A stretch of DNA of 64,000 nucleotides, taken from a virus. The notes beneath the pieces are model-generated. The model saw only the letters and a list, made by a program, of their open reading frames with translations. It did not search any database and was not told the DNA's origin. Positions 190 to 64,000 of the stretch are shown one piece after another. The stretch covers positions 2,886-66,885 of IMG/VR virus record IMGVR_UViG_3300042731_006431. One strand, written 5' to 3'. The position numbers and the translations under genes are program-made. Every line of letters begins with the position of its first letter. Position 1 is the first letter of the stretch.

Positions 190-1137
190 ATGAAAACATT
201 AGAGTTATCTGAACATTTAGAAAGATCGAAACTAATCATTGAACCTGATAAAAGAATAGAGGAAAAAGCAACCATTGAAGAGCCAAAAATTTATGGTTAT
301 AAATCGGATGAGATAATTGAGTATGAAAACAAAATTAAAACAGAAAATAAAAAAATAAAAATAGAAAACGCTTTATTAACCCGAAAAGAACCGTATTTAT
401 TTAAACCTCATCTATTAAATAAATCTTATTGTGCTTTATATAAAGAAATAATAGATATTTTAGAATTAAACCACATACGATATACAGTCATAACAAGAGA
501 AGAATATCAAAATATTTTTAATAAATGTGTTGTGTATCCAAAAAGTGAGATTGAAGGAATTTTTAAAGTTAAACTGCCCGACGAGATAACTGGCTTAAAG
601 TTGCCACTATGGATGACTTACTCTATTTATAGTAATTTCTGGAGTGACAAAAAGCCCTATGTATTAGATATAATTCCTAAAACAAATTATTTAAAAACAG
701 TAATATATAATTATTATACCAGTGAAACAACTTCATTTAAGAACTTTACCTCAGACCGTTACACCGTGTGGGATTATCCAGAAGAGTTATATACAGACGA
801 ATTACAATATAATGATTTAGGTTGCAAACCAGGTAATAACAATAAAAAATTATCTTTTTATATCAACCCAGAAACAATACCAATAGTGCCTAAACGGCTA
901 AATCATATAATAGAATTAATACCAGACTACAGAAAAAGAGGAATTCACATAGGGTTTATGCCTGGTTATAAAACAGAACTGAATTCTTTTAGAGAGCCAC
1001 AGACACTCGAATTTATTGATGACCCATTTATTTATTTTGAAAGTGTTGAGAAGTTTAGTGCAAGCGACGACCCTATTATAGTTTTTGGATGGTGGAATAA
1101 GAGCGGGTCAAGTTTAGATATATACAATAATGAATAG
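190..1137 (+). CDS. hypothetical protein, paralog of 51786..52694
   Basis: Shared motifs TLELS, IYG.KS, GxKLPxWMT, PxVPKR, FMPxY, DDPFIY, PIIVFGxWNKS. Confidence 0.8.
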   Translation: MKTLELSEHLERSKLIIEPDKRIEEKATIEEPKIYGYKSDEIIEYENKIKTENKKIKIENALLTRKEPYLFKPHLLNKSYCALYKEIIDILELNHIRYTVITREEYQNIFNKCVVYPKSEIEGIFKVKLPDEITGLKLPLWMTYSIYSNFWSDKKPYVLDIIPKTNYLKTVIYNYYTSETTSFKNFTSDRYTVWDYPEELYTDELQYNDLGCKPGNNNKKLSFYINPETIPIVPKRLNHIIELIPDYRKRGIHIGFMPGYKTELNSFREPQTLEFIDDPFIYFESVEKFSASDDPIIVFGWWNKSGSSLDIYNNE

Positions 1138-5397: not shown

Positions 5398-6819
5398 GTG
5401 GACATATTTCAACAAATACAAAAACATATTAACGATAAAATTAACTCCAGAATTGCGAAAAAAAAACAAGCCAAACCAAAGGTAATAACGCTTTCACCAA
5501 ACATATCATTCTATAAATTTGTGACTGAAATATTAGGTTATACATTACTATTACCACATAAAGAGTGGTGCGAATCGATTGATAAACCTTTCACAAAAAA
5601 ACTATTATTAAAACCACGTGGTACATACAAGAGTACAATATACACAAAGGCTTATTCATTATATAGATTAATGAAAAACCCTAATATGAGGATATTAATA
5701 ATTTCAAGTACGTTTGAAAATGCAAGCGACTTTATGACCAATATACAAAATATTATACTTTCTCATTCATGGTTTCAAAAATATAATATAGGTTTTAAAA
5801 ATAAAAATCAAAGGTCATTAAATCTAACTATTAGAAACGAATATCATTCGCGTGAACCAAATTTAATGGCTATAGGAACGTTTTCACGGTCATTAGTTGG
5901 TAGACACTTTGATTTAATTATATGTGACGACATAGTGAATAATGACGATCGAGAATCTCAAAATGCACGAGACAAAAAGAAACGCTGGTTTCAAGATGTT
6001 TTCAGTTTGCTTGATCCAGGAGGTCAAGTGTTAGTTGTAGGAACACGATGGCATTTTAATGACTTATACGATACGCTTATTAATGAAAAGAAGTGGCCTC
6101 ATGAAATCGAAACGCCTATGAATAAAGATGGCACATGCAGATTTGAGCCAATACTAACAGAAGAGATATTACAAGAGAAGGAATTTGAACTCGGCACAAT
6201 TCATTATAGTTCACAGTATTGGAACAACCCACTTCCCGAGGGCAGTGCTGTATTCTATAAAAAGTATTTCGAAAAGGGTTATGATATTAATGTCAACAAA
6301 AAGAATCTAACTTTTTACGGATACTGTGATCTTGCTTTAGGTCAATCTAAAACATCAGATTATACTGCAATAATAACACTTGCTACTGATGGAGAATTTT
6401 ATTATGTATATGATGTTATGCTTGAAAGGTTAACACCTGATCATACTATACAAAGAATAATAACTTTATTTGATATATATAATTATAAGAATTTTGGAGT
6501 TGAAGATAATTTATTTCAGACGCTTTTTAAAGAATCATTGAAAAATGAGATGCAGCGACAAGGTAAAAGACACCATATCTATATACATGGTGTTAAAAAT
6601 ACGAAAAAGAAAGAGGTAAGAATTGAAACTATACAGCCATATTTAGCAAGAGGTTTATTATTATTTCCTTCTGATTGGAAAGATAGAGTAGAGTTTACTT
6701 TGCTTATTGATCAGATGTTACACTTTCCAGTAGCTGACCATGATGATGGTCCAGACGCTTTGGAAGGTGTTTTGAGTGTTGCAAGGACTGCAAATAAAAT
6801 GAGTTTAAAAATAGGGTGA
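5398..6819 (+). CDS. terL: terminase large subunit
   Basis: Walker A-like PRGTYKST, Walker B LIICDD, VGTRWH, RNase H-like DLA..DYTA and C-terminal HDDGPDAL. Confidence 0.92.
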   Translation: MDIFQQIQKHINDKINSRIAKKKQAKPKVITLSPNISFYKFVTEILGYTLLLPHKEWCESIDKPFTKKLLLKPRGTYKSTIYTKAYSLYRLMKNPNMRILIISSTFENASDFMTNIQNIILSHSWFQKYNIGFKNKNQRSLNLTIRNEYHSREPNLMAIGTFSRSLVGRHFDLIICDDIVNNDDRESQNARDKKKRWFQDVFSLLDPGGQVLVVGTRWHFNDLYDTLINEKKWPHEIETPMNKDGTCRFEPILTEEILQEKEFELGTIHYSSQYWNNPLPEGSAVFYKKYFEKGYDINVNKKNLTFYGYCDLALGQSKTSDYTAIITLATDGEFYYVYDVMLERLTPDHTIQRIITLFDIYNYKNFGVEDNLFQTLFKESLKNEMQRQGKRHHIYIHGVKNTKKKEVRIETIQPYLARGLLLFPSDWKDRVEFTLLIDQMLHFPVADHDDGPDALEGVLSVARTANKMSLKIG

Positions 6820-7435: not shown

Positions 7436-7765
7436 ATGTCAGCTACTTTATTTTTTGTTGGGTTAATGGTGTTAATATTTATAGCGTGTACAATCATAGG
7501 ATTGGCATTTGGTGATATTTTTGTTAACTTTATACTTTTGATTGCATCAATATTAATTTTATTGGTTAGTGTTGTATTAGTGATATCATTTGGAGCTATT
7601 GATTATAATAAATACTGTACTATTGTAGATAAAAAAGTTGATAATGACAAATATATAGTATATTATAAACATAATACTTTTTTAATATATGAAAAAGAAG
7701 TGTCACCTAAAGTTTATTCGAATTCAAAAATTGGTGTACGTACATTTTATCCTTATTTGTATTAG
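7436..7765 (+). CDS. membrane protein, paralog of 8174..8512
   Basis: 2 TM helices then TIVDK..KY.VYY..NTF...EV....Y....IG. Confidence 0.7.
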   Translation: MSATLFFVGLMVLIFIACTIIGLAFGDIFVNFILLIASILILLVSVVLVISFGAIDYNKYCTIVDKKVDNDKYIVYYKHNTFLIYEKEVSPKVYSNSKIGVRTFYPYLY

Positions 7766-7776
7766 GGTTGTAAATT

Positions 7777-8184
7777 ATGAAAGAAAATTTAAGGTGTTTG
7801 CAAGGTATTTATACTACATATTCATGGTCATCAACTTTTTTAAAAATAGACAAAAAGAACATTGAAAAAGATGGATATTATAGATTTGTTTGCGATATCA
7901 ACGATATTACTTTTACTGATGATGAAGAGTATATATTAGTGTTATATACAGATGATGGTAAAGATGAAATAATAAGAAAAAAAATAAAAGCATCTGATCT
8001 ATTTGAATATATTGAGTATTGTTATCGTGGTACTCAATCGATTATAACGTGGCTAAATAGGGAATCGATAATAGATAATATATCATTTGGGATAATTATA
8101 GATGAGGAATCACTTGGTTCAATTGAATGCTCTGTTAAGATAGATAGGGTTGATGTACAAACTATATTAGATTATGAGGTGTAA
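7777..8184 (+). CDS. diverged paralog of the capsid-adjacent protein 14182..14586
   Basis: DGYYRFVCDI vs DGFYRFVVDI; ASDLF vs AADLF; YRGTQSIITWLN vs YRGQATITRWIN; SIECSV vs SITCEV. Confidence 0.8.
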   Translation: MKENLRCLQGIYTTYSWSSTFLKIDKKNIEKDGYYRFVCDINDITFTDDEEYILVLYTDDGKDEIIRKKIKASDLFEYIEYCYRGTQSIITWLNRESIIDNISFGIIIDEESLGSIECSVKIDRVDVQTILDYEV

Positions 8185-8512
8185 GATGTTAATATCAATT
8201 TTTTTAATAATATTTAGTTTAATATTAATTATTTGTTTAATTGTGGCGGTAACATCGTTTGAGATGGACAATTTTTTATTCCCGGGCAGTCTTATAATAA
8301 TGTTTGCAACTATAATTTTTGCTATCAGTTTGCATTTTACTGATGTAAATTCATTTCATACTATTATAGATAAAACGCAAGTAGGCAACCGTTATCTAAT
8401 ATATTATCAGCGCAATACGTTTATAATAAGTGAAATAGAAGTTGATGAAAAGAATTATAATTGTGCTAATATTGGGCAACGGTATAATTATGATTGGAAT
8501 TATTGTAGATAA
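8174..8512 (+). CDS. membrane protein, paralog of 7436..7765
   Basis: 2 TM helices then TIIDK..RYLIYY..NTF...EV. Confidence 0.7.
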   Translation: MRCKMLISIFLIIFSLILIICLIVAVTSFEMDNFLFPGSLIIMFATIIFAISLHFTDVNSFHTIIDKTQVGNRYLIYYQRNTFIISEIEVDEKNYNCANIGQRYNYDWNYCR

Positions 8513-9170: not shown

Positions 9171-9892
9171 ATGAAAAAAAATAGAAAGCAAAGAATAAAA
9201 TATTTAATCTACAATCTCGAAGATAAACAAGAAGACATATTTTATGATATAAAATTACATCCTAAGCAGTGGTTTAAATATTTAAACAAAAGAAACAGAT
9301 GGTTGAGCTTGTCATGTAATTTTATTGAAGGTGTGAACTGTCTCCACATTATTATTTTGGGTTGCAAATTACATATTATCGGTTATTATGCAGATATTCA
9401 ACCAAATAATAATTATTATATTTATAATACTGGTTATTTTTATCATCTTTATAATAAGTATGACAAAGTATTTGATGATATTTTGTTTGATGGAGTAGTA
9501 AAATGAAAGACGAGATCAAAGAATTAATAGAAAATCGTGATACAAAACAACAAGAAATTTATAATCACGCAAAACAAAATCCTAAAGAATGGTTTGAATT
9601 TCTTAATGATCAAAATATTTGGCTCAGTTTATATTGTGATTTTATTAAAGATGTAAACCGTATTCATATTATCATTATAGAAAATGATTTATATTTGATT
9701 TGTTATGATGAACAATATTACAATGTCCATCGCTATCACTGCTATAATTTTAATTATACTTACACTCATAAATTTGATAATTATAAACAGTATGTTGATT
9801 ATCATAACGGGTTTTATAAAACAAGAACAGAAGAAATTTTATATTTTAAAAAAGATTATCCTCCGTTTCATTTTACTTGTATGCGGCCTTAA
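9171..9892 (+). CDS. two tandem paralogous hypothetical proteins (9171..9506 and 9503..9892), third copy at the N-terminus of 62455..63249
   Basis: Shared motif KQ..I....K..PK.W...L......LSL.C.F...VN. Confidence 0.75.
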
Positions 9893-9947: not shown

Positions 9948-10421
9948 ATGACAAATGATGAGCTTGCCAAAAAAAATATAAAACTTCCTGAAATAATTGT
10001 GAACAAATGCTTTAGCACTTACCACGACAAGGACGAACTCCTTTCTCTTGGTTATGATGAACTTTATCAAGCCATTTTAAAACATGACAGAAACCGCCAA
10101 AATACTTTTACCTCATATGCTTACCGGTATATTTGGGGTAAAATGATTAACTACATTAAAAAATCGACTAAACAATACGAATATCAATATATAATTTCGT
10201 ATATAGAGTTTTTAGAAATTTCAAAGCCTGAACACTTAGATATTTTATATGAAATTAAAGAATACCAAAAAAATAACCCATCTATATATCAACAGCGAGT
10301 CATCGATTTATATCTACAAGGATATAGAGCGGTTGAAATTGCTGATAAATTAGGTTTAAAAAGAAGAGTAATATACAACCACCTAAGTAACTTCATAGCT
10401 GCTATCGAAGCAACACTCTAA
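9948..10421 (+). CDS. small sigma-70-family factor (regions 2 and 4)
   Basis: DELLSLG..L.QAI.K.D....FTSYAY.YI.G.M.NYI (region 2) and C-terminal HTH GY...EIADKLG. Confidence 0.75.
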   Translation: MTNDELAKKNIKLPEIIVNKCFSTYHDKDELLSLGYDELYQAILKHDRNRQNTFTSYAYRYIWGKMINYIKKSTKQYEYQYIISYIEFLEISKPEHLDILYEIKEYQKNNPSIYQQRVIDLYLQGYRAVEIADKLGLKRRVIYNHLSNFIAAIEATL

Positions 10422-10463
10422 ATTACATATTTAATACACTTCTGTTAATTTATTTTCCCAAAA

Positions 10464-10497
10464 ATCGCACAAAGTTAAAAGAAATTAGTTATATATT
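10464..10497 (+). promoter_or_regulatory. putative phage late promoter upstream of the portal/head operon
   Basis: ATCGCACAAA-N14-GTTATATATT; same motif and spacing at 28946, 36657, 63650. Confidence 0.75.
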
Positions 10498-10590
10498 ATA
10501 TAGTATGTGCATTTAAAACGGGATCTTTCCAAGTTGATGAAAGTGAGCGTGCTTTTATCACTCGATGTACATGCTAACTGATAAGGAAGT

Positions 10591-12550: not shown

Positions 12551-13252
12551 ATGAATGAAGAAACTTCGGGTGATTCCGGCATCGATCAAACAAAACAAGC
12601 GGGTGATTCCGTTATAGATCAAACAAAACAGTCGTCTAAGGACGTTAAAACAACAGATCAAGAAGGCGTTGACCTTCAAAAATTGCTGGATGATCCAGCA
12701 AATAAACAAATATTTGATTTAGCCAGACAGAATCTAAAAGCTGAATTTGATCGTAAATTAGATAAAGAAAATAAAAAGCTACAAGATACGTTTGAATTGC
12801 AACTAGCTAAAGCGGTTGAGGGTAAATTAGACGAGTTAAAGACTGAATCTAAAACAGAAATAGACTTAAAAACTGATCATATTAGGACATTAGAAGGTAC
12901 TATTTCAGATTTAGAAACTAAGCTTAACGCTCAAATAAAAATAAACCACGCTGCTATTATAAGACAAGCAATCTTAGAGCATTATACAACTGGGTTAGTA
13001 GAAGATAATCAATCTATTCGTGAGGATCTTGTGAATGTATTATCTCCTCTTTTTGAAGTAGATGATGATGACAAACCGAGGTTAATTTTAGACAAAGCAA
13101 TAGAAAAGCATGCTGACGAATTTAGAAAACAACGGAGCTATTTCTATAATTCCGATATTAAAAATGGTAACCCAGTAAATCCACAACAGAAACAATTTAC
13201 ACCAAAACCAAGTTTAGAGGAAGCAGCTAAATCAATCATTAAAGGATTCTAA
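12551..13252 (+). CDS. capsid scaffolding protein
   Basis: Acidic low-complexity N-term, coiled-coil core, directly upstream of the capsid gene. Confidence 0.75.
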   Translation: MNEETSGDSGIDQTKQAGDSVIDQTKQSSKDVKTTDQEGVDLQKLLDDPANKQIFDLARQNLKAEFDRKLDKENKKLQDTFELQLAKAVEGKLDELKTESKTEIDLKTDHIRTLEGTISDLETKLNAQIKINHAAIIRQAILEHYTTGLVEDNQSIREDLVNVLSPLFEVDDDDKPRLILDKAIEKHADEFRKQRSYFYNSDIKNGNPVNPQQKQFTPKPSLEEAAKSIIKGF

Positions 13253-13254
13253 TT

Positions 13255-14169
13255 ATGGCAGAAAGCATATTAGATTATCATAATACAAATTACGCTGAAT
13301 CGGTTCCGCTTGTAGAGGAATTTATAACAGGGCAACCGATTTTAAATATTGTTCCAGCGGAAACAAACATAATTGATCACGTAGCTGTGTTTAGTCGTGA
13401 TGAAGGCCTTCAAGGTGATTCCGGGCGTGTCGTTAACAACACAACAATCACAGCAGCTGAAGACGACGATTTTTCTATCATCAAAAAAGAATTAATCATA
13501 CGTGACAGAAAATTTTTCTTAGATAACAAAATTTTAAATTCTACCAATGGAAACAACGTTAAGAATTTAAAATTGAAAAAAGCATTGCAGGCTTTGGGAG
13601 CGAGTGCAAATTATCGTTTTATTAATGGGACAGAGGCTGCTGATGATTTTAGAGGCTTGAATGTTATTGCTCAAGATAATAGCATGACAAGTTCATATGG
13701 CACAGCAGTATCAACAGCTGCAACCGCTCAAACATGTTTAGATTATTTAGAAGACGCTATGAGCTCTATTTTATATAGGGCAACTCATTTACTTATCGGT
13801 TCTGATGGATTTAAAGTACTTCGAAAAATAGCAACCTATAGTCAACAAGTCACTGTTAGTGTACAAGATAGAGTTGTTGGGAAAGCTATTGGTGAGATAA
13901 TTCTAGGTGCAAAGACATTGCCAATCGTTTGGGCTGGTAAAGTTGGTTATGGAAGTACTACTATTAACAATGAGGTAATCCCATTGTCTACAACCACAAC
14001 AGATTTTTACCTAGTAGATTTCAGCGAAAACGGCGTTACTTTTGCTTTAGAATTAGCACCAACAAAAGCAATTGAAGGTGAAACAGGTATTTCTTATGTA
14101 TTGGAACAATATCAAATGTTGTGTGATAAATCCGCTTATTGCGTATATAAACACACACAAACAGTATAA
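13255..14169 (+). CDS. major capsid protein (HK97 fold)
   Basis: 304 aa after scaffold; PIL..P, E-loop-like F.R...L....R..N, FING....F.GL signature. Confidence 0.85.
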   Translation: MAESILDYHNTNYAESVPLVEEFITGQPILNIVPAETNIIDHVAVFSRDEGLQGDSGRVVNNTTITAAEDDDFSIIKKELIIRDRKFFLDNKILNSTNGNNVKNLKLKKALQALGASANYRFINGTEAADDFRGLNVIAQDNSMTSSYGTAVSTAATAQTCLDYLEDAMSSILYRATHLLIGSDGFKVLRKIATYSQQVTVSVQDRVVGKAIGEIILGAKTLPIVWAGKVGYGSTTINNEVIPLSTTTTDFYLVDFSENGVTFALELAPTKAIEGETGISYVLEQYQMLCDKSAYCVYKHTQTV

Positions 14170-14181
14170 GGAGTTATAAAA

Positions 14182-14586
14182 ATGGCTAAAGAACAAAACA
14201 AGTACGCATTTGATTATAGCTTTTATACTGCAAGTGCGACATATGTAGCAACAAACAACGCAGCTTTAACAGTGTTAAAAGCAAAATTCTTACATGATGG
14301 CTTTTACAGGTTTGTTGTCGACATAACCGATTTAGATTATACAGGAAGTGAGACGTATACTCTAACAGTGTATACAAATTCTGGTAGTACTACATTATGT
14401 ACTCTACCAATATTAGCAGCTGATCTTTTCAACCCATCAACTGGAAATTACAGAGGTCAAGCAACTATTACACGGTGGATAAACGTTGCCAACATCACAA
14501 CTGATATTCGTATGGGTTTAACATTGGCGAATGGTTCAGGAACAGCTTCTATTACATGTGAAGTTGGGATTGTGGACGGTAACTAA
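14182..14586 (+). CDS. putative capsid decoration/cement protein
   Basis: Immediately after the capsid gene, strong RBS, T/A/G-rich beta-type composition. Confidence 0.55.
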   Translation: MAKEQNKYAFDYSFYTASATYVATNNAALTVLKAKFLHDGFYRFVVDITDLDYTGSETYTLTVYTNSGSTTLCTLPILAADLFNPSTGNYRGQATITRWINVANITTDIRMGLTLANGSGTASITCEVGIVDGN

Positions 14587-26909: not shown

Positions 26910-27593
26910 TTAATATTCTTTTACTATTTTTACCCCACCCATTTCTAAAAGCAATTTATCATCACAATTTATCTCACAAAGAACTTTATCATCCTTGCAA
27001 AATAAATAATTGATTCCTTCGCTGAATATTTCAGCACTTTCATCAATTAGCATTTTCAAGGATAGCTGATAACCCTCAGGTAAACTTGGAATTGTAAAGT
27101 GTTCATAACCATCGTCTTTAATAGGAGTTGGCAAATCATATGCTTTACAAAGCAATAAGATAATTTTTTGGTCGTTATTTGGATCGTGATAAAATTTGTC
27201 CAAATCTTCATTTTGCGTAAAAATGCAACTTGATAACGGTTTTCCGTTCAAAGTTGTGTTTTCTAAGTAGTTTTCTAATTCCTGTAATTTTTTTTCATGC
27301 GCCTCCGTCGATTTTTTCTTTTGCTCAACGTTTTTCAAATACTCTGTATAAGAAACTTTGGCTTTTTCTATACATTTCATGAACCATTCATTTGTTGTGT
27401 CGTCAGAAAATTCGATTGTTTTTTCTGATATAATAGTACCTGCTATATCACCAGTTACTTTTGGTATCGATTCTTGAATTTCAGGTTTGGCATATTTAAA
27501 TTCCTTTCCTTCAATTTCTATTACAACTTCTTCAATAATTTGAATGCTTTTCCCTGATCGGGAATATTTTTTCCTTATAATATGCTTATGCAT
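26910..27593 (-). CDS. hypothetical early protein (likely start MHKHIIRKKYSRSGKS at 27593)
   Basis: AGGAG RBS before ATG 27593; own sigma70 promoter; deleted copy at 43422-43647. Confidence 0.75.
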   Translation of the reverse strand: MHKHIIRKKYSRSGKSIQIIEEVVIEIEGKEFKYAKPEIQESIPKVTGDIAGTIISEKTIEFSDDTTNEWFMKCIEKAKVSYTEYLKNVEQKKKSTEAHEKKLQELENYLENTTLNGKPLSSCIFTQNEDLDKFYHDPNNDQKIILLLCKAYDLPTPIKDDGYEHFTIPSLPEGYQLSLKMLIDESAEIFSEGINYLFCKDDKVLCEINCDDKLLLEMGGVKIVKEY

Positions 27594-27644
27594 CTTATTT
27601 CTCCTAATTTTTATTTGAGCAATTCTCAATCACTCATACTACAA

Positions 27645-28883: not shown

Positions 28884-28945
28884 TTACGTATTATTTTAAA
28901 TATAACAAACAAAACCAAAACCGTGCAAACTTTTTTTAAATTTTT

Positions 28946-28977
28946 ATCGCACAAATTCAATGTATTTTAGTTATATT
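28946..28977 (+). promoter_or_regulatory. putative late promoter of the lysis/tail operon
   Basis: ATCGCACAAA-N14-GTTATATT. Confidence 0.75.
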
Positions 28978-29071
28978 TAATATACAGATTCTTTGAATTT
29001 GTGTTAATAATTGAAGTCTCCAAGCAGTATGATGGTTTGAAATATAACCGTCATACTTATTTTAAGGAAGT

Positions 29072-36613: not shown

Positions 36614-36656
36614 TAATTATTTTATATTCCATTTACTCGTAACAAATTATAATAAA

Positions 36657-36690
36657 ATCGCACAAATAGCATATAAATACGTTATATATT
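36657..36690 (+). promoter_or_regulatory. putative late promoter
   Basis: ATCGCACAAA-N14-GTTATATATT. Confidence 0.75.
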
Positions 36691-36720
36691 GCATATATGT
36701 AATAAAGTTTGTGAGTTAAG

Positions 36721-43421: not shown

Positions 43422-43647
43422 TCATCTAACACCGTATTCTTTTACTATTTTCACTCCGCCCATCTCTAAAAGCAATTTGTCATCGCAATTTATCTCGCAA
43501 AGAACCTTATCATCCTTGCAAAATAGATAATTAATTCCATCATTGAAATTGGTATTCCTTATCCTCAACTTCAATGATTACAAATTCTACAGTTATTAAG
43601 CTTTTTCCCGATCGAGAATACTTTTTTTGAATTACATGCTTGTACAT
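43422..43647 (-). pseudogene. internally deleted, frameshifted copy of gene 26910..27593
   Basis: MYKHVIQKKYSRSGKS.. then, in another frame, GINYLFCKDDKVLCEINCDDKLLLEMGGVKIVKEY identical to the intact copy's C-terminus. Confidence 0.85.
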
Positions 43648-44682: not shown

Positions 44683-45174
44683 ATGAACTATTATGATATT
44701 GCTAAAATAGTGGTTGATAAACACTTTAATACTTATAAAGATAAGCAAGAATTGTATTTAGTGGCCAACGAAGCTGTTTTTGTTGCATTAAAAAAATATG
44801 ATAATAGAAAAAGCTGTAAATTAACATCTTATATAAATATATATGTGAGATGGATGATTTTAAATTATTTAAAAAAAGAACAAAAACAGGTTGTAGCTTT
44901 CAAAAGAGCAAAAAAAATATTAAATGTGTGCCATTATGATAAGTATGAATTTATTGATAAAAGTATTTTAGATTATGAAATTCCTAAATTACTCCCTAAA
45001 CTACCACCTCGAAAACGTGAAATATTAGAAATGTTATATAATGGTTTATCAATTGATGAGATAAAACAAATATTAGGTGTTAAAAGGCATGCTGTAACGC
45101 AACATATATTACAAATAAAAAATAATTTAGAAAAATACAAGAAAAATGATAAAAAAAGTGTACAAATTGATTAA
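44683..45174 (+). CDS. second small sigma-70-family factor
   Basis: QEL...A......AL.KYD.....L.SY...YVR..ILNYL; LPPR.REIL.M...G.S..EI...LG. Confidence 0.75.
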   Translation: MNYYDIAKIVVDKHFNTYKDKQELYLVANEAVFVALKKYDNRKSCKLTSYINIYVRWMILNYLKKEQKQVVAFKRAKKILNVCHYDKYEFIDKSILDYEIPKLLPKLPPRKREILEMLYNGLSIDEIKQILGVKRHAVTQHILQIKNNLEKYKKNDKKSVQID

Positions 45175-51785: not shown

Positions 51786-52694
51786 ATGGAAACATTAGAA
51801 TTATCAAAATATATTATAGAGTCAAAATTGCCTATAGATGAATCTACAACAAAAGACGAATCTATAACAAAAATAGAATTGCCAGTGATATATGGTAGAA
51901 AATCACCAGAATTAAGAGAATACGAGAAAGAAAATATTTCTAAATATATTTCAGAACATAAAGATTTACATAAATCTAATTTATTTAATTTTAGTGATTT
52001 ATGTCACCCAAAAGATTTAGATATTAAGAATTTTAACGAAATAAAATTAATTTTTGATGAAAAAAATATAAAATATACATGTATAAGTAGAATTGAATAT
52101 AGAAATATATTTAATAAATATATTCTTTTTCCAAAGAAACTAATTGAGGATGAATTTAGAGTAAAAATTCCTGATTATTTATATGGTATAAAATTGCCTA
52201 TGTGGATGACGTTCAGTTTAAATCATTATATATGGGAATCAGATAAAAATATTAATGTTGTTTATTTAACATCGCATTGTAGCGGTATTACATCAAAAAA
52301 TACACCATTATTTTTTAGTTGTATTAAAGGGGTAAATCTTAAACCAATAAATAGTTTATGGGATTATGAATATCTTAAAAAAAATGATTTGTTTTACAAT
52401 CAACTCAATTGCCGACATAGAAGTAAATTACATCACACATTAGATATTGATATAAAAATTGACTCTGTACCAGTGGTGCCCAAAAGATTCAATCCTATTA
52501 TAGATTTAATACCTGATAAGAGCAGAATCAATATAGCTTTTATGCCAAGTTATGATGTTAAAACGCATGATGACCCTTTTATTTATTATGATCCAATTGG
52601 GAAAACAAAATTTGATGATATTGATATACCTATAATAGTTTTTGGCATGTGGAACAAAAGCGATGCAACTTTAAATACTTATTTAAACGAATAA
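51786..52694 (+). CDS. hypothetical protein, paralog of 190..1137
   Basis: Collinear shared motifs from TLELS to PIIVFG.WNKS. Confidence 0.8.
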   Translation: METLELSKYIIESKLPIDESTTKDESITKIELPVIYGRKSPELREYEKENISKYISEHKDLHKSNLFNFSDLCHPKDLDIKNFNEIKLIFDEKNIKYTCISRIEYRNIFNKYILFPKKLIEDEFRVKIPDYLYGIKLPMWMTFSLNHYIWESDKNINVVYLTSHCSGITSKNTPLFFSCIKGVNLKPINSLWDYEYLKKNDLFYNQLNCRHRSKLHHTLDIDIKIDSVPVVPKRFNPIIDLIPDKSRINIAFMPSYDVKTHDDPFIYYDPIGKTKFDDIDIPIIVFGMWNKSDATLNTYLNE

Positions 52695-54911: not shown

Positions 54912-55850
54912 ATGAGACCAAATCAAAGAGTACACATAATTTATCACAAAGCAGATTTTGATGGTATCGCATCAGCGGCCTTAGTTCATTATGAATGTAG
55001 AGCTATGGATGATGTCGAGTTTATATTGCATCCATATGATTATGGAGACAAAGATTTCGACTTAAGGCAGCTAAACCAAGTAGCAGATTATGTCTATATT
55101 GTTGATTTTTCATTTCCAATGGAAAAGATGAAGGCTATACAGGATATAGTTGGATATAATAATTTTATTTGGATTGATCATCATAAAACAGCAATAGAAA
55201 CTTATGAGAAAAGCGGATATAGGTTTCAAGGTATAACAGACACCAATTATGCAGCTTGTGAATTGGCATATTTTTTTAATTTTGATGAGTTACCAAAACT
55301 AAACTCTCCAATATATCTTTTAGGTCGTTATGATATTTGGCAACACTACGATACAGATTATCATGATGATGCTATTAATTTACAGTATGGATTAAGAACC
55401 GAGAAAGAAGCTTTTAACCCTTGTTCAGATTTTTGGGATGATTTAATCAAATCTGATGTTATTCAATATGAATTAATGAAAACAGGCTTATTAATACGGA
55501 AATATGAGCAAGTTCAAAATATGCAATATTGTGAAAAATACGCTTTTGAATGTCTTTTCCATGATCTTAGATTTATCTGTGTCAACAAAGGCCAATCAAA
55601 TTCGATGATTTTTGATGATATATTTGACCCTGAAAAACACGATGCTATGATGGTATTTTGTGCGTTTGAGGAGGGCGGTAAACTATTTGATAGGGTATCC
55701 ATGTACACTTCAAAAGATATTGATTTGTCTGAAATAGCTAAGAAATACAATGGTGGTGGACATAAGAAAGCGTGTGGGTTTGTTTGTGATGATATTAAAC
55801 AATTAGTAGAAAATAAAAATAAAAAACTTGACGATTTCAATTTAATTTGA
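54912..55850 (+). CDS. DHH/DHHA1 phosphoesterase
   Basis: YH.AD.DG..SA, VDFS, WIDHH, GGGH..ACG. Confidence 0.88.
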   Translation: MRPNQRVHIIYHKADFDGIASAALVHYECRAMDDVEFILHPYDYGDKDFDLRQLNQVADYVYIVDFSFPMEKMKAIQDIVGYNNFIWIDHHKTAIETYEKSGYRFQGITDTNYAACELAYFFNFDELPKLNSPIYLLGRYDIWQHYDTDYHDDAINLQYGLRTEKEAFNPCSDFWDDLIKSDVIQYELMKTGLLIRKYEQVQNMQYCEKYAFECLFHDLRFICVNKGQSNSMIFDDIFDPEKHDAMMVFCAFEEGGKLFDRVSMYTSKDIDLSEIAKKYNGGGHKKACGFVCDDIKQLVENKNKKLDDFNLI

Positions 55851-55856
55851 TATATT
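55828..55856 (+). promoter_or_regulatory. sigma70 promoter for the tRNA locus
   Basis: TTGACG-N17-TATATT 20 nt upstream of the tRNA. Confidence 0.7.
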
Positions 55857-55876
55857 TTGAATATATAAACTGGTTA

Positions 55877-55951
55877 CCAACCGTAGCTCAATTGGATAAG
55901 AGCGACACCCTTTTAAGGCGTGGGTTGCTGGTTCGATTCCAGCCGGTTGGA
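55877..55951 (+). tRNA. tRNA-Lys(UUU), CCA not encoded
   Basis: Acceptor CCAACCG/CGGTTGG, D arm GCTC/GAGC, anticodon stem ACACC/GGCGT (one mismatch) with loop CTTTTAA, T arm GCTGG-TTCGATT-CCAGC. Confidence 0.8.
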
Positions 55952-55958
55952 ATAAAAA

Positions 55959-56032
55959 CCACAGGTGGCGGAATTGGTAGACGCGGGGACCAGAAATCAC
56001 CCTATATGAAGGTTCGAATCCTTCCCTGTGGA
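55959..56032 (+). ncRNA. tRNA-like element with degenerate anticodon arm
   Basis: Perfect acceptor CCACAGG/CCTGTGG, Leu-type D arm GGCGGAATTGGTAGACGC, perfect T arm GAAGG-TTCGAAT-CCTTC; no canonical U33 anticodon loop. Confidence 0.65.
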
Positions 56033-56215
56033 ATGGGTAACAAAGCTACCATACACATATTGGTAGATGGAAACAACATAGATGAGACTGAAGAGGCTAA
56101 GAACCTTCACATTCAGCGAGTCCGAAACAGAATCCTTTGAGCTGATGACAGGCCCGGAAAGACGGGCGCTGGATTAATAATTAATTGATTTAATTGTTAG
56201 GAACCCTTGTCCTGT

Positions 56216-56251
56216 AGTGCCGTGGTTATAGCGGATCACGGTACTTTTTTT
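56216..56251 (+). terminator. intrinsic terminator closing the tRNA transcript
   Basis: AGTGCCGTGGTT/GATCACGGTACT stem (with G-U pairs) then T7. Confidence 0.7.
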
Positions 56252-56595
56252 AGAAATGTTTATATTAAAGGAATTAATATGTTATTAGATATATTCCACA
56301 CTGTTGAAATAATTTTATTATTGACCTATATTAGTGTCTCTTGTGCAACTATAATATTTGACTATATACATTACAGAGTAGTAATTATAGGGGTTGTTTC
56401 TTTAGTAGGGTGTATCATATGTATCATTATAAACCTAATTTTAGGTGAGATTAATTTTACGAGTCAATATTAAATTTGTCTAAATTAACAATGAATGTAT
56501 TTCATGACAACACCATTTATAAGGAAAATTGCCTTGACTATATTCGAAATATCTATTATGTTATTAGATATTAGTTGAACGAATATAGTTTGTTT

Positions 56596-56635
56596 GTGAG
56601 TGTGGTTTACTGAGAGAACTGCACTCACCTTTTTT
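56596..56635 (+). terminator. intrinsic terminator-like hairpin
   Basis: GTGAGTGTGGTT/AACTGCACTCAC stem then T-run. Confidence 0.55.
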
Positions 56636-56651
56636 AAATTAAGGAGTAATT

Positions 56652-56824
56652 ATGGAAAAGTGTAGTAAATGTTTATGGGAAAACGCTAAAAATGAGAATC
56701 CAGCTATAATTTCTGGGTTCATGAATTAGAAGTAAAAATTGTTGAAAATGGGAAAATTGCAACTTTCACATTATGCGATTCATGTTTTAGTGAATTTAAG
56801 GCAGATTGTGAATTGGATATCTAA
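56652..56824 (+). pseudogene. small Zn-finger gene split by a frameshift
   Basis: AAGGAG-ATG MEKCSKC.. stops early; LCDSC.. continues in another frame to TAA abutting 56825. Confidence 0.4.
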
Positions 56825-57295
56825 ATGCAGATCTATTTTACAGACAACAACCCTAAAAAATGCGCTCAAGTTATAGACAATTTACGCGTATCAAAACTAA
56901 TTTGTGAGACAGCTCAATGCTTAAACTATGCAGCTATGAGACATGGTTATATAGGTACAGTTGGCTTAAGTCAAAATCAAAAATCAGCTTATCTTAATAA
57001 TCCTATAGTTAAGTGGTTGTCAGAATCAAAGCAGAATTATAAATGGGGATTGGTTCATTTAAAAGCACTATTGCAGGTTAAAAGCAAACGTTTCGGTACT
57101 GCTCATTTGTTTGTTAAGCATGTTAACAGTTTATCAAAGCTTATAAAATACATTCCTAATGGTGAATTAACAGAGTTTCCAAATGTTACTAAGAATTATA
57201 AGCATATTAAACCCACTACTGAAGCTTATCAATTGCATTTGCTTGAAAAGTGGGAAGAGTCTAAAAGAAAGGTAAGTTGGAACGAAAGAGGTTAA
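56825..57295 (+). CDS. pyrimidine-dimer DNA glycosylase / DenV-like protein
   Basis: MQI.F.D..P...AQ.....V.K...E.AQ.L, N.P...W...S..NY.W. Confidence 0.7.
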   Translation: MQIYFTDNNPKKCAQVIDNLRVSKLICETAQCLNYAAMRHGYIGTVGLSQNQKSAYLNNPIVKWLSESKQNYKWGLVHLKALLQVKSKRFGTAHLFVKHVNSLSKLIKYIPNGELTEFPNVTKNYKHIKPTTEAYQLHLLEKWEESKRKVSWNERG

Positions 57296-57296
57296 T

Positions 57297-58133
57297 ATGA
57301 CAATAACTGAATATTTAAACAGTTTACCCCTTTTAAAGGGTTTCAATACACTGCAAACTCCTATTTTAGATATTATGCATCATGAAACTAAAGTAAAAAA
57401 TCACTGTTTTATAGGTAATGATAACCAAAAACTTATAATTAGAGATCGATCTTTTTTTGTTGATCAATTAGCATTTAAAGATCATGATGATTTTTTAAAC
57501 CATTTAGAGTTAAGAAGTAAAGTTAATAATGAAATTTATGATAAGATGCTTGAAAAAGCATTATCAGTAATAAAAAGCTCTGCAAATAATCGTATTATTA
57601 ACGGCAGACAGGCACCTATTAATTTTAACGGCTTAAATACCATCACTGAATATAATTATATGTTTTTACCTCATCACCATAAATTAAAAAGTAAATATAA
57701 TTTTAGAAAATTAATTGACTATTTTGAAATTGCAATAAGGGCAATGAAATATTCTACTACACATTTAATAGTTGGCATTGAAGGTTATAAACTTTTAGAA
57801 TCAATATCTCCCTATTTCAAGGATATGAGGTTAAAAAACTTACAGCTTTCAAATAATGCAAATGATTTAGGAGATATTGAAATTTTAAATTCCAGAATTA
57901 ATATTATTTTTGCCGGTTTTGATTATACGCATAATCAAGTTATAACAGTTAAAGATGATATGATAGATATGTATTTAGTTGATTTCTCAGAAAACGGGTT
58001 AACTTTTGCATTGGAAATATTCCCTATAATGAAAAAAAATGAGGGCACTGGAATAACTTATTTTCTCAAAACAGCTCAATGGCTATGTCAAAATTCTGAA
58101 AATTGCTGTTATAAAATATCTCAGAGGGTATAA
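57297..58133 (+). CDS. second, diverged major-capsid paralog lacking the presumed E-loop
   Basis: LIIRDR.FF.D, SAN.R.ING, F.GLN, THL..G..G.K.L, YLVDFSENG.TFALE, TGI.Y.L...Q.LC shared with 13255..14169. Confidence 0.88.
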   Translation: MTITEYLNSLPLLKGFNTLQTPILDIMHHETKVKNHCFIGNDNQKLIIRDRSFFVDQLAFKDHDDFLNHLELRSKVNNEIYDKMLEKALSVIKSSANNRIINGRQAPINFNGLNTITEYNYMFLPHHHKLKSKYNFRKLIDYFEIAIRAMKYSTTHLIVGIEGYKLLESISPYFKDMRLKNLQLSNNANDLGDIEILNSRINIIFAGFDYTHNQVITVKDDMIDMYLVDFSENGLTFALEIFPIMKKNEGTGITYFLKTAQWLCQNSENCCYKISQRV

Positions 58134-58134
58134 A

Positions 58135-58473
58135 ATGAAAAAAATGTATGTAAGCGGCCCATATAGTGGCACACTAGATGAAATAAATCATAATATATCA
58201 TTTGCCGAAATAGCATCTGTTAAGTTGCTTAAATGTGGATGGTGTGTACTTACACCTCATAAAAACTACTCTAATTATGAAAAGTATGAGGAATATTTGG
58301 GGTTTGGTTATGAATATTGGCTTTATCTTGATCTTGAATTATTATCTTGTTGTGATGCTATTTTTATGCTTAAATCATATAAAGAAAGCAAAGGCGCTAT
58401 GATAGAACTTGAAAAAGCTATAGAATTAGGTCTTGAAATTTACTATGAAAGCGAAGGATATCCATGTCCTTAA
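58135..58473 (+). CDS. DUF4406/DUF1937-like nucleoside deoxyribosyltransferase-fold protein
   Basis: YVSGPY, PH, DLELL..CDAI.ML.....S.GA..E...A. Confidence 0.75.
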   Translation: MKKMYVSGPYSGTLDEINHNISFAEIASVKLLKCGWCVLTPHKNYSNYEKYEEYLGFGYEYWLYLDLELLSCCDAIFMLKSYKESKGAMIELEKAIELGLEIYYESEGYPCP

Positions 58474-58850
58474 AACCAAGATCTAAATCAAGAATGGCTG
58501 TTGCTCAAGATAAATATTATAAAATAGCTACTATACTCGTATATAAAAAACATGGTAAAAAGTGTTTTTATTGTGGTGCTAAACCTGAGGGCTTGGATCA
58601 TATCGTTAATCGATCGTTAAGTAATTATTTATATTCGTGTCCACAAAACCTTGTACCATGTTGTGGTAGGTGTAATTTAGATATGAAAATAAATCCTAAA
58701 AAGAAATTATCTATAATAGAATCTAAAGGAATAGATTATAATTCACTGTTAGAACTTGATAAACAAGGATTACCTTTTGTTAAAAGTCATTCATGGGATG
58801 AGTGGTTTAATTTGAATTGTGAGAAGTATAGAAAAGAGAATAGAATTTAA
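58464..58850 (+). CDS. HNH endonuclease (NinG-like)
   Basis: CFYCG..DHI..RS...NLVPCC..CN. Confidence 0.78.
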   Translation: MSLKPRSKSRMAVAQDKYYKIATILVYKKHGKKCFYCGAKPEGLDHIVNRSLSNYLYSCPQNLVPCCGRCNLDMKINPKKKLSIIESKGIDYNSLLELDKQGLPFVKSHSWDEWFNLNCEKYRKENRI

Positions 58851-62454: not shown

Positions 62455-63249
62455 ATGGATGATATAATTAATGGTTTAATTGAAAATATGGATACCAAAC
62501 AGCAAGAGATTTATGAACATGTTAAAAATCATCCTAAATATTGGTATGAATTTCTAAAAAGTGAAAACAAATTATTGAGTTTATATTGTGATTTTTTAGA
62601 AGAAGTTAATAGGTTTAAAATAATTACTTTGGATGATAAAATTTATTTGTTCGAATATTTTCTTAGTTCGATAACTCACTATAACTACAACGAATATTAT
62701 CTTAATGAATACAATAATTATAAAAAATATTCTGATTTTCATGATTTTAACTACGGAACTTATGACAAAAAATCAGAGGAAATATTATATGAATCTCAAC
62801 CATCTGAGGGCGATAATTCAAAACAGGATAAAATTCAAAATGCTAAATCAATCAGTGAAAAATATAAAGTGCCAGTGTATGAAAGTACAGCGAGTAATGA
62901 AATAGGTAAGGATACTGATTATTTACCACCTGCTAATGAAAAGACAACCATAGGGTTATCAGAAGAGAAATCTAAGGAATTTCATTCAAAATTAGAAGCT
63001 TTAAAGGCGAAACATCAATTTAAAAGAGACGAGGAAAGCTCAGTAAATCATCCAGCTCACTATACGCACGGAAAATATGAAACTATAGATGTAATAAAAG
63101 ATTGGAAATTATCTTATTGCCTTGGTAATGCTGTAAAATATATTTCACGCTGTGATTATAAAGATAATAATATTTTAGATCTTAAAAAAGCAAGGTTTTA
63201 TCTCGACTATGAAATTAAACGACTGGAGGATGAGCAAAATGGCAACTGA
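62455..63249 (+). CDS. fusion of the 9503-family domain and a DUF3310 (SaV-like) domain
   Basis: N-term DTKQQEIY.H.K..PK.W.EFL; C-term VNHPAHY..ETIDVI..GNAVKYI.R..DLKKA.FYL. Confidence 0.8.
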   Translation: MDDIINGLIENMDTKQQEIYEHVKNHPKYWYEFLKSENKLLSLYCDFLEEVNRFKIITLDDKIYLFEYFLSSITHYNYNEYYLNEYNNYKKYSDFHDFNYGTYDKKSEEILYESQPSEGDNSKQDKIQNAKSISEKYKVPVYESTASNEIGKDTDYLPPANEKTTIGLSEEKSKEFHSKLEALKAKHQFKRDEESSVNHPAHYTHGKYETIDVIKDWKLSYCLGNAVKYISRCDYKDNNILDLKKARFYLDYEIKRLEDEQNGN

Positions 63250-63646: not shown

Positions 63647-63649
63647 AAA

Positions 63650-63684
63650 ATCGCACAAACTAACCTTATTGTAGTTATATATTA
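63650..63684 (+). promoter_or_regulatory. putative late promoter
   Basis: ATCGCACAAA-N14-GTTATATATT. Confidence 0.75.
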
Positions 63685-63685
63685 T

Positions 63686-64000
63686 ATGAGCGATCGGAAC
63701 AAAATAAGATACACGAAAGAATTTAAATATTTGATCTATAGGGCACTACTGGACGGTGTTTCGAAATATCAGATACATAAAGATCATGGCATTAGTCTCG
63801 GAACACTTTCAGTTTGGGTCAAAAGTGATGAATATAAATCATTTGAAATTGCCTATCACGCTCAAAAACCACGTTGCGAACAAGTGGCTGAAATAGTTGA
63901 AGGTAACTATAATAAAGTAAATAGCAAATCAAAAATAACCTCGGAATACGACTATTACAGTAAATTGCTAAAACGTAATAGTGATGTCACTACCTCAATA
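63686..64000 (+). CDS. HTH protein running off the window end, candidate terminase small subunit
   Basis: MSDRNKIRYTKEFKYLIYRALLDGVSKYQIHKDHGISLGTLSVWVK.. open to the end; late-promoter motif upstream. Confidence 0.5.
   Translation, partial: MSDRNKIRYTKEFKYLIYRALLDGVSKYQIHKDHGISLGTLSVWVKSDEYKSFEIAYHAQKPRCEQVAEIVEGNYNKVNSKSKITSEYDYYSKLLKRNSDVTTSI

Follow-up and report, generated by a model that had tools for sequence, protein, structure and literature searches.

In phage T4, the vertex protein gp24 is a paralog of the major capsid protein gp23; its gene adjoins that of gp23 in the late head cluster, and the protein has a complete HK97 fold and forms pentons. In the satellite SaPIbov5, the Ccm protein is a homolog of the capsid protein of phage phi12, with which it shares 24% identity; it fills the pentamers and changes the shape of the head, and it keeps the E-loop and the delta domain (PMC8569155). 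The E-loop pegs a subunit to its neighbour within the capsomer and bridges to the next capsomer (10.1101/626804; PMC5701804), as shown by the K169-N356 cross-link of HK97 (PMC5701804) and by point mutants of the P22 coat protein E-loop (10.1101/626804). The Family 4 'A-domain' encapsulins, of about 100 amino acids (aa), are made of the A-domain only (PF08967, DUF1884) and are encoded in two-gene enzyme operons, including one with the nucleoside-linked DeoC (PMC8346489). Here we analyse a stretch of 64,000 nucleotides (nt), called the window, which corresponds to bases 2886-66885 of the 66,885-base-pair (bp) IMG/VR virus record IMGVR_UViG_3300042731_006431, a record with direct terminal repeats. 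Besides the major capsid protein (MCP) gene, the window carries a second, diverged copy of it at positions 57,297 to 58,133, from which the predicted E-loop is missing. With a probability of roughly 0.4, we read its product as a derivative of the capsid protein that builds no shell and binds a partner of the MCP. The features on which the comparison of the two copies relies are the following:

57297..58133, plus strand: gene of the predicted E-loop-less, HK97-fold MCP paralog (P0001), ATG start, 278 aa
57285-57291, plus strand: ribosome-binding site AAAGAGG, 5 nt before the ATG of the paralog
57402..57431 (codons 36-45), plus strand: short linker HCFIGNDNQK, putative E-loop remnant, placed by alignment and strandless in the model
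57474..57509 (codons 60-71), plus strand: 12-residue insertion FKDHDDFLNHLE, following FFVDQLA, between the P-domain strand and the spine helix
13255..14169, plus strand: MCP gene (P0002), 304 aa, in the head operon after a scaffold-like gene
13381..13491 (codons 43-79), plus strand: predicted E-loop hairpin of the MCP, absent in the paralog (alignment, AlphaFold2, VIA)

The open reading frame (ORF) 57297..58133 is a true paralog of the phage's own MCP. An end-to-end alignment of the two proteins had been claimed in a first-pass annotation of the window, made from the letters alone, and is recovered both by BLASTP (98 identical residues out of 296, 33%, E 5e-47) and by MAFFT (38% identity). 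Searching the 66,885-bp record with the paralog returned only two matches, itself and the MCP. While the MCP matches phrog_212 'major head protein' (E 3.3e-9), no PHROG match at E <= 0.01, PHROG 212 included, and no Pfam capsid family at E <= 0.1 were found for the paralog. Identical residues comprise L46-I47-I48-R49-D50-R51, F53-F54, D56, S95-A96-N97, R99, I101-N102-G103, F110, G112-L113-N114 and the segment from Y226 to E240, so that every shared motif quoted in that annotation is invariant in the pair. MCP residues from about 52 to 79 lie opposite a 28-column gap in the MAFFT alignment; the 33-aa MCP segment SRDEGL...IIKKE corresponds to NDNQK in the paralog. The replacement by about 5 residues reported at first pass is thus found again, as are the insertion of about 12 aa after FFVD, now placed at residues 60-71, and the intact 278-aa frame with its AGAGG ribosome-binding site.

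Structure prediction of both proteins, a check named in the first-pass annotation, was carried out with AlphaFold2 on 9-row alignments. The mean predicted local distance difference test (pLDDT) and predicted template modelling (pTM) scores were 80.9 and 0.80 for the MCP, and 76.7 and 0.75 for the paralog, whose residues 111-278 have block means of pLDDT 75-95. Compared with known structures using VIA, the MCP model yielded Z 19.3 with encapsulin shells and Z 17.1 with HK97 prohead II. For the paralog model, Foldseek detected 274 PDB matches at E <= 0.001 (best E 2.3e-8), among which encapsulin and phage capsid chains ranked first; VIA scored it at Z 16.5 with an encapsulin shell (root-mean-square deviation 4.3 over 231 aligned residues) and Z 13.6 with the HK97 mature capsid 1ohg_A. 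Look-alikes in the ESM Atlas are phage capsid clusters as well. As modelled, the paralog and the MCP are both HK97-fold proteins.

In the MCP model, strands 43-49 and 73-79 pair as a hairpin with a poorly ordered tip, which runs into the P-domain strand 81-90 and then into the spine helix 99-124. Residues 25..304 of this model are mapped by VIA onto residues 130..383 of HK97 gp5, and K169, an E-loop residue of HK97 (PMC5701804), falls within the hairpin, near MCP model residue 64, according to an approximate mapping by offset. The paralog model consists of a strand at 47-56, a helix at 70-102, and then alternating A-domain helices and strands. Ten residues (36-45) replace the 37 of the MCP, no strand is predicted between residue 29 and the P-strand 47-56, and the linker residues 34-43 have pLDDT below 50. 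The spine helix is predicted to be longer than that of the MCP (70-102 versus 99-124) and takes in part of the insertion. The N-arm is kept in sequence (15 of 35 residues identical to the MCP), yet residues 1-46 are poorly modelled (block pLDDT 41-75). The models support the identification of the deleted stretch as the E-loop, because the MCP hairpin sits between the N-arm and the P-domain strand, which is the E-loop position in the HK97 fold; this agrees with what had been proposed at first pass. A predicted complex of the MCP and the paralog obtained a score of 0.13 and a mark of 0.32, without controls, and is evidence neither for nor against binding.

To what extent the second copy is held by selection was assessed from its codons. 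Over 264 codons aligned between the paralog and the MCP, 100 specify the same residue; the codon itself is shared at 47 of these positions, where chance would give 49.2. The blocks LIIRDR.FF.D and YLVDFSENG.TFALE are spelled with different codons, including six-fold switches (AGA/CGT, TCA/AGC), and are retained as whole blocks (9/11 and 15/17 residues) despite this codon randomisation. Since the same-codon count is at the chance level, the duplication is old and has seen no recent gene conversion, and the residues kept despite randomised synonymous sites are held by protein-level selection. The pairwise ratio of non-synonymous to synonymous substitution rates (dN/dS) of the two copies is not meaningful, their synonymous sites being saturated. 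The probability that a 278-codon frame stays open by chance at the composition of the paralog is 1.5e-11, the codon usage is typical of the genome, and identity to the MCP is uneven along the chain (chi-square 34.6, 12 degrees of freedom, p 5e-4). As far as a comparison of two sequences goes, the paralog is shown to be under purifying selection and not decaying, and neutral evolution, which the first-pass annotation had named as a refuting condition, is not what is seen.

Constraint on the paralog nevertheless appears to have changed from that on the MCP. The branch leading to it measures 1.55 substitutions per site versus 0.25 for the MCP, about six-fold longer, and of the 69 columns invariant in the full-length family members P0002, P0003 and P0004 it keeps 36 and has replaced 33. 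The GC content is 26.4% versus 35.9% for the MCP. Could the gene then have no function any more, having been left behind by a duplication or by an exchange with a related phage, and be drifting AT-rich towards loss? The long branch, the lost invariant residues and the fall in GC would fit such a fate, as would the lack of an ortholog in any collection searched and the presence of at least nine other paralogous ORF pairs in the genome, which makes duplications frequent there. We nonetheless regard it as very improbable: synonymous sites are fully randomised and yet 38% of the residues and whole blocks are kept, the frame is open, the core is confidently folded in the model, and both the ribosome-binding site and the translational coupling described below are intact.

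The changes are distributed in a way that bears on a second alternative, in which the paralog is a minor virion subunit at special lattice positions, namely the eleven pentons or the portal ring. Identity to the MCP reaches 15/35 in the N-arm, 9/11 in the P-strand and 15/20 in the hairpin 248-267, regions that form the capsomer periphery in the HK97 fold. By contrast, in the A-domain only 4 of 28 residues are identical to the MCP in segment 199-226, versus 11-13 of 28 in orthologs, and 5 of 16 in segment 227-247, versus 14-15 of 20-21. Capsid paralogs of solved role form pentamers, as T4 gp24 does. SaPIbov5 Ccm does so too, and the most changed part of our paralog, the A-domain, is the one that packs round the capsomer axis (PMC8569155). 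For such a subunit, the missing E-loop contact would be supplied by the E-loops of neighbouring MCP subunits or by an accessory protein. Against this proposal, Ccm keeps its E-loop in the description available (PMC8569155), no E-loop-less capsid paralog or lattice subunit was found by full-text searches of the main articles, and 33 of the 69 family-invariant residues have been lost. We consider a minor lattice subunit the strongest rival of our reading, even if a doubtful one.

The composition of the paralog has moved to the norm of non-structural genes, which also weighs against a virion subunit. Its fraction of A+G+S+T residues is 0.18, and the means are 0.174 for 36 non-structural genes versus 0.253 for 17 structural-module genes (Mann-Whitney p 5e-5), membership of the structural module being assigned by position only; 2 of the 17 structural-module genes are at or below the value of the paralog. 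The residues K+N+I+Y+F make up 39% of the paralog versus 28% of the MCP. A surface richer in K and H had been noted at first pass. The sequence does bear out the rise (K 22 versus 16, H 10 versus 4, isoelectric point 7.70 versus 4.86), but the impression comes largely, as judged from composition, from an AT-driven change that is common to a second duplicated gene of the head region.

The genomic setting of the paralog was then described from the following features:

56216-56245: terminator-like hairpin before the paralog operon
56534-56562, plus strand: sigma-70-like promoter candidate TTGACT-17-TATGTT, from a consensus scan only
56596-56628, plus strand: terminator-like hairpin of 13 bp with a T-run (-24.7 kcal/mol, z -3.4), before the first small ORF (56653)
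56825..57295, plus strand: upstream partner, glycosylase-like, phrog_624 'DNA binding protein' (E 4.6e-25)
58135..58473, plus strand: downstream partner, DUF4406 / nucleoside 2-deoxyribosyltransferase-like, PF14359 (E 2.3e-14) and phrog_355 (E 8.5e-25)
58464..58850, plus strand: HNH endonuclease-like gene, phrog_2118 (E 1.3e-6), overlapping 58135..58473 by 10 nt

Spacers of 1 nt are found on both sides of the paralog gene: the stop codon of the upstream gene occupies 57293-57295, and the ATG of the downstream gene lies 1 nt past the stop codon of the paralog. The paralog gene looks translationally coupled to the upstream one. The product of the latter has a weak match to Pyr_excise, the pyrimidine dimer DNA glycosylase family (PF03013, E 0.0022), under the gathering score. 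For 58464..58850, 14 further HNH or endonuclease VII PHROGs match, and the Pfam HNH matches are below cut-off. Wider neighbours comprise a replication initiator (52709), DnaB (53529), a DHH phosphoesterase (54912) and a nucleotide kinase (62455). The nucleotide-metabolism and repair neighbourhood proposed at first pass is therefore well recognisable. The hairpin before the paralog operon matched no Rfam family. Between the hairpin and gene 56825, the interval 56653-56824 contains two short frames, each with a CxxC pair and in different reading frames, which may be two mini-ORFs or a split zinc-ribbon gene.

A promoter-like motif distinguishes the head operon from that of the paralog, and three further features are needed to describe it:

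10463-10502, plus strand: bipartite promoter-like motif AATCGCACAAA-N15-TTATATATTATATA, before the portal/head operon
9948..10421: extracytoplasmic function (ECF)-like sigma factor gene, just before the portal promoter, with Sigma70 region 2 and region 4 matches
44683..45174: ECF-like sigma factor gene at the head of the rightward replication block, with Sigma70 region 2 and region 4 matches

On the plus strand, the motif in its general form AATCGCACAAA-N15-TTATATATTATAT, the second half of which reads TTATAT(A/T)T(T/A)..., occurs at 10463, 28945-28984, 36656-36695 and 63649-63688. Each of these four copies precedes a plus-strand gene or gene run, and the one at 63649 opens the region running on to the terminase gene. 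No copy was found before the paralog operon, nor anywhere between 36695 and 63649 on the plus strand, which matches the absence of a late-promoter motif stated at first pass; that the motif is a late promoter is our inference. One of the two sigma factors, which are paralogs of 28% identity, may read it. The paralog gene is located about 15 kb upstream of the terminase gene, counted round the record. Its position in a DNA-metabolism operon, behind terminator-like hairpins and without the motif of the structural genes, is a further argument against a minor virion subunit.

The same neighbourhood raises the alternative that the paralog has been exapted as an oligomeric platform or small compartment for the co-translated glycosylase-like and DUF4406 enzymes. 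With spacers of 1 nt on either side, the paralog may be co-expressed in stoichiometric amounts with both enzyme-like neighbours, encapsulin shells score highest against both models (Z 16.5 for the paralog, Z 19.3 for the MCP), and truncated HK97-fold proteins in enzyme operons have been described (PMC8346489). However, phage capsids score nearly as well as encapsulins, the difference being a few Z units, and the paralog is far closer to the phage's own MCP than to any other protein. The Family 4 proteins have about 100 aa and the A-domain only (PMC8346489), whereas the paralog has an N-arm sequence and a P-domain and no PF08967 match (E <= 0.1). Gene adjacency alone being weak evidence of a complex, we hold this exaptation to be improbable.

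We favour the reading of a non-shell-forming derivative of the capsid protein because the paralog combines the loss of the E-loop with a diverged A-domain, a place in a DNA-metabolism operon and a non-structural composition. It would retain the core of the HK97 fold, with an N-arm recognisable in sequence and, in the model, the P-domain sheet, spine helix and A-domain. The predicted E-loop hairpin is missing from it, 12 residues have been added where the spine helix begins, and about half of the family-invariant residues differ. A subunit of this kind would accept the E-loop of a neighbour and give none, and would therefore propagate neither a capsomer nor a shell lattice by itself. The paralog probably no longer builds shells. 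Made together with the DNA-metabolism genes, it would take the place of the real capsid protein at one of the latter's binding sites. Such a site could belong to the capsomers or scaffold of the phage itself, which would allow assembly to be timed or capped, or to a host factor that recognises the capsid protein. Paralogy, fold, place of the deletion, purifying selection and operon layout are shown by the analysis, whereas we infer when the gene is expressed, that its product does not assemble and what it binds.

A more specific version of this reading, which we judge unlikely, sees the paralog as a purpose-built capsid mimic, made along with the DNA-metabolism genes ahead of the true capsid protein and stripped of the elements of polymerisation (E-loop and A-domain contacts). 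It would sequester or blind host immune sensors triggered by the capsid protein or by its oligomerisation, or alternatively cap the capsomers of a competing relative or satellite. This decoy idea is a sub-case of the favoured reading. No capsid-protein decoy was found in the same full-text literature, where matches to 'decoy' concerned target-decoy proteomics or decoy nucleotides.

Several observations weigh against a non-shell-forming derivative in general. No ortholog of the paralog was found in the collections searched, and the profile search gave 10 hits among 1.84 billion representative proteins. Both models are built on 9-row alignments, and the linker 34-43 is modelled with such low confidence that it may still make a very short turn or contact. 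A pentamer specialist might equally show a diverged A-domain, and, on priors, capsid paralogs of known role are virion pentamer subunits, which favours a structural role. The argument from composition is weak, as the ranges overlap and two of the 17 structural-module genes are equally low. As for expression, the 'late' label of the bipartite motif and the sigma-70-like promoter are both at the consensus level, promoter-like sites being no commoner than in shuffled sequences (92 versus 88.5), and the public runs listed as containing the region comprise no RNA run and one DNA run only.

The MCP gene is not the only head-region gene with a distant second copy. An all-against-all BLAST of 199 ORFs recovered the following pair:

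14182..14586, plus strand: gene immediately downstream of that of the MCP, 134 aa, without Pfam or PHROG match
7777..8184, plus strand: second copy of that gene, 135 aa, 35% identity (E 3e-22)

The second copy is surrounded by genes of small membrane proteins, in the interval that separates the terminase gene from the portal gene. From 14182..14586 to 7777..8184, the GC content passes from 37% to 27%, with the same amino-acid shift as in the capsid paralog. Two adjacent head-region genes thus each have an ectopic copy of similar divergence (35% identity for this pair, 33-38% for the capsid pair), which counts in favour of the minor virion subunit, for which the 7777..8184 product would possibly be the accessory protein that supplies the missing contact. 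If the paralog is a capsid mimic, this product could accompany it by mimicking a further abundant head protein. A single event may have produced both ectopic copies, and they might act together. In the ESM Atlas, a look-alike cluster of the 14182..14586 family has 15% of its members with PF21190 Bbp16; this resemblance to phage head accessory proteins is only a lead.

Judged from its ORFs, the genome duplicates genes unusually often. Paralogous pairs with 27-49% identity include 190..1137 with 51786..52694 and 7436..7765 with 8174..8512, and a further paralogous family is formed by 9171..9506, 9503..9892 and the N-terminus of 62455..63249. On the minus strand, 38 residues at the C-terminus of 26910..27629 (a 239-aa ORF) are 95% identical to 43422..43574, 16 kb apart; this stretch is a recent short duplication.

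Relatives of the capsid paralog were searched for in large collections. A profile search with HMMER among the 1.84 billion representative proteins yielded 10 hits, corresponding to a tiny family, and no hit among these is convincing as an ortholog of the short, E-loop-less form. A word-indexed search of 5.8 billion proteins returned 2 proteins, both from this genome. Pattern scans of IMG/VR with the paralog, the MCP, the family member P0005 and a five-row alignment (A3) recovered nothing beyond the paralog and its own MCP. No further relative of the paralog was detected in JGI metagenome contigs with the A3 and P0005 patterns, nor any in GTDB genome contigs with the A3 pattern. A PDB sequence search with a two-row profile gave chance-level matches only (E >= 0.17). 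Within the profile hits, P0009 is a protein of 1,997 aa with 21 short repeated matches, and P0007, of 223 aa on a 1,074-bp contig, is probably a fragment.

A maximum-likelihood tree unites the paralog, the MCP of the same phage, P0005 and P0006 (support 81/94), leaving P0003 and P0004 outside. Inside this group the tree supports no particular order, the approximately unbiased (AU) test giving p 0.19 for a pairing of the paralog with the MCP and p 0.47 for a pairing with P0005. P0005 was considered as an ortholog of the paralog, having 279 aa and an E-loop region of 21 residues versus 37, and was rejected: most of the family-invariant residues missing from the paralog are present in P0005, its position in the tree is not fixed, and it is known from a contig of 1,759 bp. 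By its sequence, P0005 appears to be a functional capsid protein whose E-loop is short, not an ortholog. The best explanation of the sequence comparisons is that the paralog is an old duplicate of the phage lineage's own major capsid gene.

The phage itself is uncultured and has a GC content of about 30%. The region was found in one public DNA run only, as wetland metagenome contigs, possibly those from which this DNA came; comparison with this run gave one identical contig and zero variants. No near relative was detected among 50,697 phage records by tblastn and megablast with the paralog and the MCP as queries. Besides the genes already listed, the following features were located:

5398..6819: large terminase, closest in the phage collection to that of ANMV-1 (34% identity, E 1e-70)
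12551..13252: scaffold-like gene, preceding the MCP gene in the head operon
55877-55951: tRNA-Lys(UUU), Rfam
55959-56032: tRNA-Ser(AGA), Rfam

The main ORFs are on the plus strand from 44683 across the record ends to 26855. Their order is a sigma-like gene, methyltransferases, the replication initiator, DnaB, the DHH phosphoesterase, two tRNA genes, the paralog operon and the nucleotide kinase, followed by the terminase (5398), the portal (10591), the scaffold-like gene (12551), the MCP (13255) and a head-tail adaptor (14589); the ORFs after the adaptor are taken by position as tail genes. The sigma factors and DnaB, identified by sequence, point to a bacterial host. ANMV-1 is recorded as a virus of an uncultured archaeon, and the remaining terminase matches listed do not exceed about 26% identity. 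The Rfam scan of the window found the two tRNAs only, and the 97-aa ORF 55847..56140, which overlaps both of them, is probably no gene.

How does the locus compare with the systems from which we started? Like T4 gp24, the paralog is phage-encoded and derives from the phage's own major capsid protein. Unlike gp24, it is remote from the head operon and has neither an E-loop nor the promoter motif of the structural genes; of the features of the vertex or penton class, paralogy to the MCP is present and a complete HK97 fold including the E-loop is absent. With Ccm it shares being a second HK97-fold protein diverged from a working capsid protein (24% identity for Ccm, 33-38% here), encoded away from the head operon, that of the helper in the case of Ccm, and building no capsids alone, a property we would extend to the paralog (PMC8569155). 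Ccm differs in being the product of a satellite gene, with its E-loop present, and a true lattice subunit, whereas the paralog is the phage's own gene and its predicted E-loop is gone. The Family 4 encapsulins resemble it as truncated HK97 folds in small enzyme operons, some of them nucleoside-linked, where the role of the fold is described as speculative (PMC8346489). They are cellular proteins of about 100 aa, while the paralog is a 278-aa phage protein that would lack only the E-loop, and has no DUF1884 match. The paralog gene is tightly coupled to enzyme-like genes, as seen in this one genome. That a protein without an E-loop would be unable to hold a lattice follows by extension from the E-loop roles in P22 and HK97; those observations come from laboratory mutants of the only capsid gene, whereas here an intact MCP coexists with a selected loop-less copy.

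The finding comes from a single uncultured metagenomic genome and would surprise a capsid specialist. Should the paralog be a mimic that does not assemble, the phage protein sensed most widely would have a natural counterpart that acts as a decoy or dominant negative, and the paralog would be a ready-made probe of what capsid-sensing defences recognise. If it is instead a lattice subunit, a position in the HK97-fold lattice could be filled without an E-loop. Capsid paralogs were already known as vertex subunits, in T4 gp24, or as a satellite weapon, in Ccm, and truncated HK97 folds were known in cells. What is new here, and unmatched in the full-text literature searched, is a phage that carries among its replication and repair genes a selected copy of its own capsid protein from which, according to the models, exactly the E-loop has been removed.

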